NCBI GenBank assembly: GCA_964586255.1
Contig: CAZPGE010000006.1
Span: 1-61,826, forward strand
Direction: 5' to 3'
Source of the DNA: an uncultured Candidatus Saccharibacteria bacterium
Lineage (GTDB): Bacteria; Patescibacteriota; Minisyncoccia; Phycocordibacterales; UBA2100
Length of the DNA stretch: 61,826 bases
The notes under the pieces: model-generated
What the model saw: only the letters and a program-made list of their open reading frames with translations
Database searches by the model: none
What the model was told of the DNA's origin: nothing
Translations under genes and position numbers: made by a program
In this document: piece after piece, positions 1,561-5,803 of the stretch
Layout of the letters: each line of letters begins with the position of its first letter
Numbering within the stretch: the stretch's first letter is position 1

Positions 1561-2586
1561 ATGAAGAAAAAAGACTCTTCACCTCTCATCGGTGACATTA
1601 TAAAAAAGATAGCGCCCCGCATTGGTGCGAAGGTGGTGATAGAGCCCGAATGGGGTATTGCAGGGCAGATTACATTTAAAAATGGTCTCAAATCCTATTT
1701 TCGATTCAACAGTATCGGTATCAACACACTCGGGGCAGCGGAGATAAGTAAAGACAAAGATTATGCCAATTTCTTCATGCGAAAGATGGGATATCCCACG
1801 ATTCCTGGAAAGACATTCTTTAGCAAAGCGCACTGTGAATCGCTCGGCGTGAAGCGTGGTGCAAGAGAAGCCTGCTTCTATGCAAAAAAGATTGGTTTCC
1901 CAGTCATAGCGAAACCCAATAGCGGGAGTCAGGGAAAAGGTGTGTATCTCGCTCGCAACGAGAAAGAATTGCGAGGTGCGCTTTTATCCATCTTCACGTT
2001 GGACAAAGTCGCTCTCGTGCAAGAAGTGGTGCAAGGGGATGACTACAGGATTGTCGTACTCGACGATAGAGTGATTTCGGCGTACCGGCGCATACCGCTC
2101 AATGTGGTAGGCGACGGCACGTCGACGATTCTGCAGCTTCTCAAGAGGAAGCAGAGGGAATTCGTCGCTGCGAGCCGTGACACACGCCTCAACCCAGACG
2201 ACCCGCGGATACAGAATAAACTTCGAGCTCGAAACTTGAGCCTGGGCTCAGTCCTTCCTCGAGGCGAGAAAGTCTTTCTTTTGGATAATGCGAACCTTTC
2301 CTCCGGGGGAGATGCCGTCGATGTTACGAATATCCTCCACCCCGGATACAGGAAAGTCGCGGTGAGTCTCACGCGTGATATGGGGCTTCGGCTCTGCGGT
2401 GTCGATTTGATGACAGAGGGGGATATTACCAAGCCACCAGAGTACTATAGGATTATTGAGATCAACTCTGCTCCCGGTCTTGATCACTACGCACAGAAAG
2501 GAAGGGCCCAGCGCCGTATCGTCGAACAGCTCTATGAAGAAGTATTGAGAAGTATGAGCGAGACGAAGAGAGTCAAGAGGCGCTAG
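1561..2586 (+). CDS. ATP-grasp ligase, cyanophycin synthetase/GshAB-type ATP-grasp domain (stand-alone)
   Basis: GFPVIAKPNSGSQGKGV, DYRIVVLD, RRIPLNVVGDG, ANLSSGGDAVDVT, CGVDLM and IIEINSAPG. Confidence 0.85.
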   Translation: MKKKDSSPLIGDIIKKIAPRIGAKVVIEPEWGIAGQITFKNGLKSYFRFNSIGINTLGAAEISKDKDYANFFMRKMGYPTIPGKTFFSKAHCESLGVKRGAREACFYAKKIGFPVIAKPNSGSQGKGVYLARNEKELRGALLSIFTLDKVALVQEVVQGDDYRIVVLDDRVISAYRRIPLNVVGDGTSTILQLLKRKQREFVAASRDTRLNPDDPRIQNKLRARNLSLGSVLPRGEKVFLLDNANLSSGGDAVDVTNILHPGYRKVAVSLTRDMGLRLCGVDLMTEGDITKPPEYYRIIEINSAPGLDHYAQKGRAQRRIVEQLYEEVLRSMSETKRVKRR

Positions 2587-5012
2587 CGCCAGTATTTTCG
2601 CGCGAATCCAACATAGCCCCCTATCCCTAAAAGTATGAGCGCTAAAAGGGTGAGCAGGAACAGTGTCCAATCGGTGTCACCCGCTGCTGCAGCAGCTGCG
2701 ACCTGTCCGCGAGTCTCTTCGACGGTCACCGGCGTTTCCTCAGAGGTTAGTGTTTGAGCGGGAATTTGAGCGAGATGCTCTGGAGGCGTATCCCCCTCAA
2801 CTTCTTCCGCAGCACCCGCAAGGATTTCGGCGATAGGCGTACTTGTGGCCTCGGTATTCGCACTTGCAGGGGATGTTGTCGCTATTTCAACAAGTGGGGT
2901 CGTCGTGGCCATCGTTATCACAGGTGTAGACGTAGCAGTCTCAGTCGTGACCAAAACCCCTCCTCCTGTATTCGACGTTGTCTTTGCTGCGGGTCTCGCA
3001 AAACTCGTAAGGAGAGAATTCCAAGTCCTGCCAGTCGCGCCAGGTATAGCGTATTCAGTCGCCCAAATGCGAGTTAGGTCGCTTGCCGACGTGGGCTCTA
3101 CGCCGCCATCGCTTTGCTGAAGCGAAGCGAGGTAGTCGGATGGGTAGAGTCCTCCCACGCTCCACGAAGTTTGCTGTTGTCCGAGTGCCGCAATCGCCTG
3201 CATGGTCCAGCTTGTCGCAGAACTGTTTGCAAAACCTCCCGTGTTTTGCTGCTGCAATCTCAGGTAACTTTCCGCCTTCGTGATTGCTGCGGATACGCCA
3301 GAAAGAGAGCTCAGTGGCGCGAGTGATTGCACGGCGGCGGCGGTGACGTCGACGCCACCTACCCATGACCCGTTTTCCTGCTGTCTCGATAGGATGAATG
3401 CCACGCTCTTGCTTATCATCTCGTCGGCGCTGCTGTATCCCGCATGCGTGAGGGGGAAGAGTGCAAAAATATCATCGTTGTCGAGCGAGGCGTCGCCTAT
3501 TTGCGTGCCGTCGAAGCTCGCTACTATCGGGGCGATGTAGTCGACGCTCGTGCCCGCATACGGGTCAATGCCAAGCGCCATGAGTGCCATTGCGTGGCGA
3601 ATATTATCTTGTACTCCTGAGAGGCCCGGGGCAGTGCTCTCGAGAAATGCCTTGAGCTTGGCCTTTGCTTCGCCTGGATCCGCCGCTGCGAAAGCTATCG
3701 CTGCCCAGTCAGTGAGCAACGAACTGCTGAAGGAACCATCTGCTTCCTGCTTGCTCGAAAGATATGCGAGTGCTGCGGGCACGTTGAAAGTGATATGGCT
3801 GACACCGCCGCCACCACCGCCACCACTTCCGCTCCCGCTTGGCTCGGGTTCCAGGTTTTCTTCCTGAATCACTTCGCGGAGCGCGATGACCCTCACGTCC
3901 TTGGAACTCGACGTGGCATTCGTAATGAAGTTTGTGTAGATAAGTGACATCGTGTCGCCGACGACGAGCGGTAGCGTAATGAGACCTCGCGTCTCTTCGT
4001 ATATACCGTTGTGATACAGCGCCCAATAGGAGGTGCTCGGGTCTTTTATGCCATCGATACTATCGGCGAAAAGGCCTACACCAGCGAACTCGACGAGCTC
4101 ATAGCTCTCTATGTGCCCTTCGTTTTTCGCCTCAACGAGAGCACATATGCCAAGGTACGAATCGGAGAAGTCGTGAGACGAGCCGGTTGTATCCGATACG
4201 GTGCATGCGCTAGGAAGAGAGATGTTGTGGTAGGTATCAAGGAGCGCGTCGATGTGGATATCGACACTAAAATCGAGCGTCGTCTCAGTAAACGTGACTG
4301 GGTCATATGCAGTCAAGACGAGCGAAACAGTGTCACCTGAGGTAAGCGGTAATTCAGACGCGCCGACGTTTGAGCCCGTACCATTTAGATTCAGTTTCCA
4401 GTAACTGTTGGGCAAGGTCGTTCCGTTGACACTGTTGACGAAAAGCCCAAATCCGAAGTCAGCAAATTCGATACTCTCAACCGCGCCTTCATCGACCGCT
4501 TGTTGCAGTGCACATATGGCGAGGTACTCAGTACTCGTGCTAATGGGAAATATATGTGCGATTCCGGTCGCGTCTGCTACCTCACAGCCGTTGTGTAGAT
4601 GTATGGTACTTTCGAGAGCGAAGCCTTGTTGAACTTGCTCTTCCTGCAGCTCGACCGTGACATGAAATGAGGCGGTGCTCGTATTGCCGTGGCTGTCGGT
4701 GGTGCTGCATTCGACGAGTGTATCGCCGAGGGGGAATGAATCCGTACCTGATGCAGGATTGCAGATGACAATTACGCTTTCGTCGATATTGTCGGTTGCG
4801 CTCACGTCGTACGAAGCGGAGAGAACAGCATCTGCGTCTGTCGTGGAGAGTACGATATCCTGTGCGCCGCTCAATACGGGCCCGATGCACTCTGGCAACG
4901 TACACGGCTCTTCAAAGTCACTACCTCCCGGTGCTTCTTCGGATTGCGCATAGGAAACAACAGGAATAAGGAGTAGAGAGCTTACAACGAGCGTGACCCA
5001 GGCATTTTTCAT
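2583..5012 (-). CDS. Surface protein: signal peptide, HYR domain, 2x DUF4430 (transcobalamin-like beta domain), prenyltransferase-like alpha/alpha barrel, C-terminal TM anchor
   Basis: GLFVNSVNG..YWKLNLNG..G..GDTV and GLFADSIDG..YWALYHNG..GDTM; QxxDGSF/QQENGSW/QQNTGGF repeats; HYR-like SATDNID..GDTLVECSTTDSHGNTSTASFHVTV; hydrophobic C-terminus ending RKYWR. Confidence 0.8.
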   Translation of the reverse strand: MKNAWVTLVVSSLLLIPVVSYAQSEEAPGGSDFEEPCTLPECIGPVLSGAQDIVLSTTDADAVLSASYDVSATDNIDESVIVICNPASGTDSFPLGDTLVECSTTDSHGNTSTASFHVTVELQEEQVQQGFALESTIHLHNGCEVADATGIAHIFPISTSTEYLAICALQQAVDEGAVESIEFADFGFGLFVNSVNGTTLPNSYWKLNLNGTGSNVGASELPLTSGDTVSLVLTAYDPVTFTETTLDFSVDIHIDALLDTYHNISLPSACTVSDTTGSSHDFSDSYLGICALVEAKNEGHIESYELVEFAGVGLFADSIDGIKDPSTSYWALYHNGIYEETRGLITLPLVVGDTMSLIYTNFITNATSSSKDVRVIALREVIQEENLEPEPSGSGSGGGGGGGVSHITFNVPAALAYLSSKQEADGSFSSSLLTDWAAIAFAAADPGEAKAKLKAFLESTAPGLSGVQDNIRHAMALMALGIDPYAGTSVDYIAPIVASFDGTQIGDASLDNDDIFALFPLTHAGYSSADEMISKSVAFILSRQQENGSWVGGVDVTAAAVQSLAPLSSLSGVSAAITKAESYLRLQQQNTGGFANSSATSWTMQAIAALGQQQTSWSVGGLYPSDYLASLQQSDGGVEPTSASDLTRIWATEYAIPGATGRTWNSLLTSFARPAAKTTSNTGGGVLVTTETATSTPVITMATTTPLVEIATTSPASANTEATSTPIAEILAGAAEEVEGDTPPEHLAQIPAQTLTSEETPVTVEETRGQVAAAAAAGDTDWTLFLLTLLALILLGIGGYVGFARKYWR

Positions 5013-5031: not shown

Positions 5032-5568
5032 TTAATAACTTTGCTTGTAACGCCACTCAATCAAATCTCCCGCGTGGACAGTAGTCTCTGATACTCCCGC
5101 GTTTGAAGATTTGTCATTTACATAGAGAAACCAGTAGTAGCCGTCCTCTGCGTGCTTGCCGTTGATAGATTCGACAAAGAAGCCAAGCGAAGGGTATTCC
5201 TTTCCTGTAAACACAAGCCCGTCTGACGTCGCGGCCTGCATAGCAGAAAGAAGTGAAGCTCCGTCTTGAGTACAGGGCACGTAGACAGCGCTTTCGATAG
5301 TGATGCGGATGCTGGAGTTGCATGGAAGTGTCGATTCTCGCGCCGTAGGAGTGGGTGCTTCAGGCGACACTTGTGGCTGCACGGAGGCGTTGCCCGGCTG
5401 GGGTACATCAATGACGATGTCTGCACGAGTTTCGTCGAGAGTCGATGTCGCAGCGAAATCGCCGGGACCGTATGAAATTGTGACGTTTGGACGATCGCCA
5501 TACCAAAGCGACGCGACAATGCCCGCGACGAGAAGTGATGCGATTGAGATATAGATTTTGTTCGTCAT
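5032..5568 (-). CDS. Membrane-anchored DUF4430 (transcobalamin-like C-terminal domain) protein
   Basis: N-terminal TM helix, Pro/Thr linker, then LGFFVESINGK..YYWFLYVNDK..AG..VHAGDLIEWRY. Confidence 0.85.
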   Translation of the reverse strand: MTNKIYISIASLLVAGIVASLWYGDRPNVTISYGPGDFAATSTLDETRADIVIDVPQPGNASVQPQVSPEAPTPTARESTLPCNSSIRITIESAVYVPCTQDGASLLSAMQAATSDGLVFTGKEYPSLGFFVESINGKHAEDGYYWFLYVNDKSSNAGVSETTVHAGDLIEWRYKQSY

Positions 5569-5572
5569 AGGT

Positions 5573-5603
5573 ACAAAAACAAAAAACTCCGCCCGAAGCA
5601 GAG
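5573..5603 (-). terminator. Intrinsic terminator in the riboswitch expression platform
   Basis: Minus strand CTCTGC-TTCGG-GCGGAG followed by TTTTTTGTTTTT, 4 nt before the ATG at 5568. Confidence 0.8.
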
Positions 5604-5651
5604 ATTCTAGAAAGCACGCGTGTATGCACGCATGATTTCCTGCTCGGGAAT

Positions 5652-5767
5652 ACGTTTGAACGATAATCGGACTTTAACCGTTGCGGCACAGTGGAGGAAT
5701 TTCACCCCTCTTCCTATTCGCCGTTTCTATTTTGGCGAATTCCCGCTTTCGCGAGACAGTCAAACGT
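5652..5767 (-). ncRNA. Cobalamin riboswitch aptamer (compact, short-P6 type)
   Basis: Minus strand AGGAA-GAGGGGTGAAATTCCTC-CACTGTGCCGCAACGGT-TAAAGTCCGA matches the GGGAA / GGTGNAANTCC / CTG..GCAACNGT / AAGYCNG core. An 8-bp closing stem ACGTTTGA/TCAAACGT brackets it, and it lies upstream of DUF4430 genes. Confidence 0.9.
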
Positions 5768-5775
5768 GGATGTGC

Positions 5776-5803
5776 ATTGTATGCTTGCGTGAAATATGCG
5801 CAA
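5776..5803 (-). promoter_or_regulatory. sigma70-like promoter for the riboswitch leader
   Basis: Minus strand TTGCGC-N16-TACAAT; predicted +1 near 5769, immediately before the aptamer closing stem. Confidence 0.65.

Follow-up and report, generated by a model that had tools for sequence, protein, structure and literature searches.

The window, by which we mean the whole 61,826-nucleotide stretch of Saccharibacteria DNA analysed here, carries on its minus strand a leader followed by two genes, the products of which both contain DUF4430, the C-terminal domain of transcobalamins (PMC4350170) (Table 1). The AUG of the first gene (5568-5566) has no Shine-Dalgarno (SD) sequence and lies 5 nt (5573-5569) past the U tract of an intrinsic terminator. 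The mix of HYR, DUF4430 and alpha/alpha-toroid regions in the 809-aa product of the second gene recalls the two-domain build of transcobalamin. A cmscan search of the window returned one riboswitch, AdoCbl-II (RF01689), at 5726-5658 of the minus strand with 37.6 bits (E 2.5e-5), a score barely above the cut-off of 36.5 bits. Using a whole-genome covariance-model search, we found that this leader is the sole match to the cobalamin clan in the 861-kb, 99.7% complete genome; RF00174 (Cobalamin, Cbl-I) had no match in the genome at E <= 0.001. The B12 transport, binding or metabolism genes that are expected downstream of members of the clan (Rfam CL00101) are present here in the form of the downstream DUF4430 proteins. 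Behind riboswitches of this type, DUF4430 is carried by 74 of 143 first ORFs, and the first ORF of one relative matches Pfam Cobalamin_bind (PF01122).

Table 1. Features of the leader, its promoter and the downstream genes, with two genes elsewhere in the genome (G000, given by contig).
Feature	Position	Strand	Sequence or product	Basis
Promoter	5776..5803	-	-35 TTGCGC 5803-5798, 16-nt spacer, -10 TACAAT 5781-5776	sequence
Whole cobalamin aptamer, closed by P1	5652..5767	-	P1: ACGUUUGA 5767-5760 with UCAAACGU 5659-5652	MFE and RNAalifold
Pa, extra 5' hairpin	5742..5755	-	CUCGC-GAAA-GCGGG, GNRA loop	RNAalifold, 13 relatives
Pb, extra 5' hairpin	5716..5740	-	AUUCGCC / GGCGAAU, A-rich 11-nt loop (AAAAUAGAAAC)	covariation
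J3/4 and P4/L4	5693..5715	-	AGGAAG; GGGG-UGAAAUU-CCUC, T-loop-type L4	cmscan alignment to RF01689
P5/L5	5681..5691	-	L5 U5688 G5687 C5686 C5685 G5684, aptamer half of the kissing loop	sequence, relatives
P6/L6	5668..5680	-	CGG-UUAAAGU-CCG, unextended: 3-bp stem, 7-nt loop	cmscan alignment
P13/L13	5637..5650	-	UUCC, loop CGAGCA, GGAA	fold, 157 leaders, L5/L13 alleles
Middle hairpin	5609..5640	-	CAUGCGUG-CAUA-CACGCGUG 5634-5615, extendable by GGAAA 5640-5636 with UUUCU 5613-5609	fold
Antiterminator	5592..5648	-	CCCGAGCAG 5648-5640 with CUGC-U-UCGGG 5601-5592	MFE of leader and platform
Intrinsic terminator	5574..5603	-	CUCUGCU-UCG-GGCGGAG 5603-5587, 7 pairs; U tract UUUUUUGUUUUU 5586-5574	terminator scan
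First regulated gene	5032..5568	-	178 aa, hydrophobic N-terminus; DUF4430 (transcobalamin C-terminal-like)	Pfam PF14478, 53 bits
Second operon gene	2583..5012	-	809 aa; HYR, DUF4430, alpha/alpha-toroid (SQHop_cyclase_C-like) region	Pfam
RTPR-like reductase	G000:C10:159-2522	+	787 aa	TIGR02505
PduO-type corrinoid adenosyltransferase	G000:C4:79307-79807	+		140 bits

The aptamer (5767-5652) exceeds the Rfam match, which spans the core alone. This conserved core, comprising J3/4 GGAA, the T-loop L4, P5/L5, P6 and the AGUCCG box, scores above the RF01689 gathering score; L4 (UGAAAUU) is identical to the consensus and L6 reads UUAAAGU compared with UaAaAGU, the latter being the form expected for L4 docking in Cbl-IIa. 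In an RNAalifold analysis of 13 relatives, 20 of the 32 predicted aptamer pairs were kept in at least one sequence that had changed on both sides, with compensatory changes in most pairs of P1 and covariation in P4. All six predicted pairs of Pa are maintained, and each pair that varies shows 3-7 double changes; the Pa loop is a GNRA tetraloop in the four closest relatives. Pb, which directly adjoins the J3/4 sequence AGGAAG on its 5' side, covaries as well (AUCUGUC/GACAGAU, ACCCGC/GCGGGU and GUCCGUC/GACGGAU, for example). It sits where the RF01689 model has its J1/3 loop, and those residues that cmscan aligned to J1/3 actually form the 3' strand of Pb; judged from this alignment and the Pb covariation, the internal J1/3 T-loop between P1 and P3, a Cbl-IIa trait, is absent here. 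The P3 of the model (positions 14-18 and 71-75) was deleted in the cmscan alignment of the window, and of two P3 candidates found by eye, AUAG/UUAU and GAAG/CUUC, neither is conserved among the relatives. An invariant ACUGU/ACGGU helix proposed by RNAalifold conflicts with the Rfam P6 and was set aside, so that the Rfam P5/P6 were kept.

The Pb loops of the window and of seven relatives (L002, L023, L028, L030, L041, L042 and L085) share an A-rich motif containing UAGAA(A), the U...A spacing of which fits a T-loop; by this spacing, the loop could stand in for the missing J1/3 T-loop. In other relatives the loops at the Pb position are short and unrelated. We also considered Pa and Pb as a general substitute for the P6 extension and rejected this idea, since many leaders from the candidate phyla radiation (CPR) have neither hairpin and several have both.

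The marginal Rfam score, the deleted P3 and the failure to match RF00174 raise the question of whether the aptamer is degenerate or non-binding, in which case the leader might be a constitutive attenuator or respond to a protein, to temperature or to some other signal. We regard this as very unlikely: the core, L5, L13 and the downstream platform have been kept, with covarying helices, over a phylum-level radiation, the conserved leaders precede genes of the B12-binding type, and the low score is explained by the lineage-specific hairpins, which are missing from the model.

Upstream of P1 we found a promoter that the consensus promoter scan did not call, as its -35 box matches only 3 of 6 positions. 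Of 34 genus-level relatives, 26 share its layout (TTGCnn, 16 nt, TA(C)AAT, about 6 nt, CCACG), and hence the transcript begins within a few nucleotides of P1; the start is probably at CCA (5769-5767), as predicted from a position about 6-7 nt past the -10 box. Across the genome, the positions before the start codons of 619 long ORFs show preferred bases (G at -14, T at -12, A at -11 and T at -7) that look like a -10 box placed for transcription to start at the start codon, and the mRNAs of this genome may as a rule be leaderless.

A preliminary description of this DNA, made from the sequence alone, had proposed a loop-loop contact between the aptamer and a hairpin just downstream of it, and both partners lie where it had placed them: L5 is UGCCGCAA (5688-5681) with a UGCCG core (5688-5684), and the hairpin UUCC/CGAGCA/GGAA, which begins one nucleotide past P1, occupies 5650-5647, 5646-5641 and 5640-5637 on the same strand. 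In the proposed register, G5684 pairs with C5646 and C5685 with G5645, A5644 is bulged, and C5686, G5687 and U5688 pair with G5643, C5642 and A5641, respectively. A trait of CL00101, namely a kissing loop that involves a hairpin immediately 3' of P1 and leaves one nucleotide or more unpaired, is thus present, and an unpaired or bulged L13 nucleotide is required for the ligand dependence of the kissing loop (PMC5028336). P13 by itself is weak (-2.5 kcal/mol, z -0.8), which the proposed mechanism demands, and a lone 5-bp loop-loop match in the window would carry little evidential weight without relatives.

We turned to relatives for support of this contact. Among 151 genomes from the same family, 44 have a match to RF01689; in a class-wide sample of 151 genomes the count is 8, with the present one included. 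Searching a species-level genome collection for an exact pattern of L5 (GTGCCGCWACGGT) joined to L13 (CYCGAGCARG) gave at least 120 stretches, nearly all labelled Saccharibacteria, Paceibacteria, Nomurabacteria, Kaiserbacteria, Gottesmanbacteria and other Patescibacteria. Together with loci from the earlier relative searches, the matches make up a set of 157 distinct leaders; in this and all other leader counts given here the relatives are not independent of one another. The closing pair of P13 covaries from C-G to U-A in this set (CG in 129 leaders, UA in 22, UG in 5 and CA in 1) and is paired in 156 of the 157, compared with a mean of 138 and a maximum of 143 in 500 shuffles. The third pair is likewise over-paired (147 leaders; shuffle maximum 140).

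All 157 leaders and 39 of the relatives retrieved have the L5 core UGCCG unchanged. As both loops are invariant in the lineage, support for the kissing loop comes from other alleles, and these back the proposed register with its single bulged A. Nine of ten relatives with L5 UCGCG carry CGCG at the opening of a 7-nt loop on a covarying stem (GGCU/AGUC, GACU/AGUC, GGCU/AGCC). In one relative with L5 CCCAG, L13 reads CU(A)GGG, so that three double changes preserve the geometry of 2 bp, a bulged A and 3 bp.

The UCGCG allele belongs to a second type of cobalamin riboswitch in the same family (loci L003, L005, L006, L008, L009, L011, L019, L032 and L046), in which L13 is CGCG(C/U)(C/U)(A/U), an extra hairpin stands before P13 and the leader precedes an ORF starting MPETEH.... 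This second type was not detected in the window's own genome.

Downstream of P13, the leader contains the three elements of a terminator-antiterminator platform. The two strands of the antiterminator are at the positions given by the preliminary description, CCCGAGCAG at 5648-5640 and CUGCUUCGGG at 5601-5592, and its claim that they pair and that the antiterminator overlaps P13/L13 is borne out by the MFE structure, in which they form 9 bp with U5597 bulged. The antiterminator takes up the 5' arm and the loop of the terminator together with two bases of the 3' arm. By stacking on the extended middle hairpin it gives one long imperfect hairpin, and the predicted energy of the entire platform is -26.6 kcal/mol (z -3.2). 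The duplex itself (-15.5 kcal/mol) ranks about third among 335 terminator-like sites in the same genome, and shuffling the 14-nt P13/L13 segment of the window produced an antiterminator in about 10% of trials. The terminator stem-loop has a predicted energy of -7.7 kcal/mol. When the six bases of L13 were barred from pairing in imitation of the kissing loop, the fold switched to the terminator state at -23.8 kcal/mol, compared with -26.6 kcal/mol for the free fold. Thus, an intrinsic terminator and an antiterminator that excludes P13 and the terminator alike are both present in silico, with the caveat that equilibrium folding of this kind takes account neither of folding kinetics during transcription nor of the energy that the kissing loop contributes. 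The middle hairpin alone contributes -11.0 kcal/mol, and its extension, which competes with the 3' strand of P13, is the MFE structure of 5655-5604 (-16.1 kcal/mol, z -2.7).

Nearly all relatives have a hairpin of different sequence at the middle position. Its stem is variable and its loop is very often (C/U/A)AUAC (window 5615-5634, minus strand, and L014-L034; GCGCAUACGC and GUCGCAUACGAC are examples); such constancy of the loop above a changing stem is suggestive of a contact or of a site for a protein.

Comparative data provide the decisive evidence for the switch, as judged from the sequences of related leaders. In 28 of 34 leaders from the same family, nearly all of them from the same genus, the free MFE is the antiterminator and blocking L13 yields the terminator, whereas the free MFE of the other 6 is a different structure. 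These figures were read directly from the folds; a stricter terminator finder, which shifts the terminator ends, gives 16 of 26 within the genus. CPR-wide, the switch was found in 49 of 85 leaders with a clear terminator, compared with 9% after shuffling of the 14-nt segment, and blocking L13 restored the terminator in 80 of 85. A MAFFT alignment of the platform misplaces the 3' arms of terminators with 6-nt loops, and motif-anchored scripts were used instead. The OFF logic read from the leader by the preliminary description is supported by these results. Moreover, the terminator stem covaries among relatives (CUCUGC/GCAGAG and CUCCGC/GCGGAG), and through this variation the GCU(N)CGG of the terminator arm and loop retains complementarity with the invariant L13 region. 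Since L5, L13 and part of P13 are invariant in the lineage, the case for the antiterminator rests on conservation and energy models and not on many compensatory changes. Locus L050 provides one example of such a change: here CCU-CGAGCA-AGG faces GCUCGAGG in the terminator loop, and a C-to-U change beside L13 is matched by an A in P13 and an A in the terminator loop. This triple covariation of the base 5' of L13, its P13 partner and a base of the terminator loop has few informative cases and is given as an example only.

The terminator 5' arm and loop resemble L5 in that both complement L13, which places a CGG near the terminator loop and raises the possibility that L5 CCG kisses this CGG (5595-5593) directly and stabilizes the terminator, in which case UUCC-CGAGCA-GGAA would not be P13. 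The match comprises only 3 bp, however, and relatives with the same L5 have terminator loops without CGG (UCGUGU, UCGACC, UCUAC). In addition, L5 alleles covary with the P13 loop and not with terminator loops, and the CGAGCA hairpin is invariant across the CPR, has a covarying closing pair and occupies the canonical site just after P1. We consider a direct contact between L5 and the terminator highly improbable, even more so than a degenerate aptamer.

We thus favour, with a probability of roughly 80%, a transcriptional OFF cobalamin riboswitch that controls a two-gene B12-capture (DUF4430) operon in a Saccharibacteria/CPR bacterium. Observed motifs, covariation, conservation and in-silico energetics underlie this proposal, from which we infer that a ligand binds, which corrinoid it is and in what kinetic order the steps occur, as follows. 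The aptamer would fold as P1, Pa, Pb and the conserved P4-P5-P6 core, with the weak P13 next. With a corrinoid bound, L5 (UGCCG) and L13 (CG-A-GCA) would form the 5-bp kissing loop with A5644 bulged; this would keep P13 together and 5648-5640 out of reach for the antiterminator, so that the terminator (5603-5587 and the U tract) could form and polymerase would stop 5 nt before the start codon. Without ligand, the extended middle hairpin would take the 3' strand of P13 once 5655-5604 had been made, freeing the L13 region, and CCCGAGCAG would capture CUGCUUCGGG as soon as the latter was synthesized, leaving the terminator arm occupied and allowing readthrough. The riboswitch therefore most likely halts transcription of the two B12-capture genes when B12 is plentiful.

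Control was also said at the outset to be transcriptional, and our data agree with this: a canonical terminator is present, the AUG stays unpaired in either state, and across the genome the 619 long ORFs show no enrichment of SD motifs ahead of their starts (17% compared with 20% in a control region). Considering that most studied class-II riboswitches are translational (PMC10327014, PMC5028336), we weighed translational or dual control, in which the kissing loop or the terminator hairpin would mainly mask the ribosome-binding region, as in env8HyCbl or E. coli btuB, and termination would be secondary or Rho-dependent. The AUG is just 5 nt past the U tract, and in several relatives the GGAG of the terminator 3' arm lies 9-14 nt before the AUG, a spacing that would suit this mode of control. 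In the window, however, GGAG is 18 nt from an AUG that is accessible in either state, L13 (CGAGCA) is not an SD sequence, SD-like motifs are not enriched in this genome, and the canonical hairpin with its U tract is conserved in 85 of 157 leaders. Translational or dual control hence appears unlikely, if somewhat less so than the two alternatives discussed above, and control is most plausibly transcriptional.

The closest mechanistic parallel is the Priestia megaterium metE riboswitch, for which the scheme comprising a kissing loop, P13, an antiterminator and a terminator has been established by disrupt-and-restore mutagenesis (PMC10327014). Both are OFF switches with a corrinoid-dependent L5-L13 kissing loop (predicted in the window) that stabilizes a weak P13, an antiterminator that excludes P13 and the terminator, and a structured spacer between P13 and the terminator. 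The position of L5 in the window is also that of the UCCCG consensus L5 (PMC10327014). While the metE kissing loop consists of five contiguous pairs, UCCCG:CGGGA, that of the window is UGCCG:CG(A)GCA with a bulged A, a difference amounting to one compensatory swap (C to G with G to C) and an inserted A. Furthermore, the metE antiterminator uses the 3' side of P13, whereas that of the window draws on the 5' strand of P13 together with the complete six-nucleotide L13. As a consequence, kissing loop and antiterminator are in competition for one set of bases, and the terminator arm behaves as a mimic of L5. The metE aptamer is of the Cbl-I class, in contrast to the aptamer of the window with its minimal P6; the large P6 extension of Cbl-I (RF00174), P7-P11, is absent in the window. 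Judged by its sequence, the leader is most likely a genuine cobalamin riboswitch with a mechanism of known kind, and as such adds little to riboswitch mechanism.

The best Rfam match of the window is to the env8HyCbl/AdoCbl-variant family (RF01689 AdoCbl-II, Cbl-IIa; PDB 4FRN/4FRG, as cited in PMC7367189), with which the aptamer shares the L4 and L6 loop sequences, an unextended P6, a short P1-P13 linker and an unpaired purine in L13. It differs from env8HyCbl, which is translational with its ribosome-binding site in L13, in the absence of a J1/3 T-loop and in the presence of two additional 5' hairpins. Strict conservation in 144 AdoCbl-variant members has been described for two bulged purines and for a purine-purine (A.G) pair of the kissing loop (PMC5028336); that of the window has neither the two bulged purines nor the A.G pair, and instead one bulged A (5644) and five Watson-Crick pairs. 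Bacillus subtilis yvrC (PMC7367189) has a hybrid periphery like that of the window, with a small P6 and a 5' arm that lies between P1 and the core. Compared by description, a single P2 arm and a small P6 hairpin in yvrC stand against Pa, Pb and a bare L6 in the window.

One claim of the preliminary description did not hold up, namely that the short P6 indicates a preference for methyl- or hydroxo-cobalamin. Class-II riboswitches span selectivities from AdoCbl to MeCbl, with J1/3 as the key determinant (PMC6158498; PMC7367189), and selectivity in this class is set by J1/3 and not by P6; the window has Pa and Pb where J1/3 would be, and its kissing loop departs from that of the AdoCbl-variant family. 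Aptamers with a hybrid periphery, B. subtilis yvrC among them, bind several cobalamin forms, and for yvrC the peripheral make-up is not a simple predictor of ligand form (PMC7367189). Same-genus relatives with the same L5, L13 and platform have a P6 extended by a hairpin (an insert in L6) and a continuous P1/P3 helix, and this combination of a continuous P1/P3 with a short P6 hairpin resembles, by analogy, the description of AdoCbl-binding Cbl-IIb (PMC7367189). On the side of the enzymes, the sole reductase-like ORF that we found is an RTPR-type AdoCbl-dependent ribonucleotide reductase (TIGR02505, 328 bits, below the cut-off of 340), a PduO-type corrinoid adenosyltransferase is encoded as well (Table 1), and a search of the genome for the MetH-type B12-binding domain PF02310 found none. 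AdoCbl is the only cofactor form for which the predicted gene content reveals a use, and given these enzymes it is the most likely candidate for the corrinoid sensed.

With a genome of 861 kb, in which the single ribonucleotide reductase detected is AdoCbl-dependent, B12 must come from neighbours, and judged by gene content the bacterium seems to need scavenged B12 for DNA synthesis. The leader is the only B12 sensor detected in the genome and is predicted to control transcobalamin-like surface proteins. A literature search on CPR/Saccharibacteria cobalamin riboswitches found nothing relevant. A tentative reading, which we hold to be possible yet on balance doubtful, is that CPR/Patescibacteria have a structural subclass of cobalamin riboswitch of their own, defined by the near-invariant UGCCG:CG(A)GCA, a terminator 5' arm that mimics L5 in direct competition for the bases of L13 and, in this lineage, the replacement of J1/3 by Pa and Pb. 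Under such a reading Pa, with its GNRA loop, and Pb, with its UAGAA-containing loop, may buttress the binding pocket like the P2 arm or the P6 extension do elsewhere; if true, the subclass could have its own corrinoid selectivity and would mark the B12-salvage regulon of these bacteria, comprising DUF4430 proteins and unnamed genes.

The compact platform would offer a convenient model for competition between a kissing loop and an antiterminator, and the L5/L13 pair, being common to many CPR lineages, provides a cheap sequence marker for their B12-acquisition genes. Eight leaders with the CPR-typical L5/L13 (L055, L074, L077, L083, L089, L095, L116 and L118) stem from metagenome-assembled genome records labelled 'uncultured Gammaproteobacteria', and these labels may be automatic mis-assignments.
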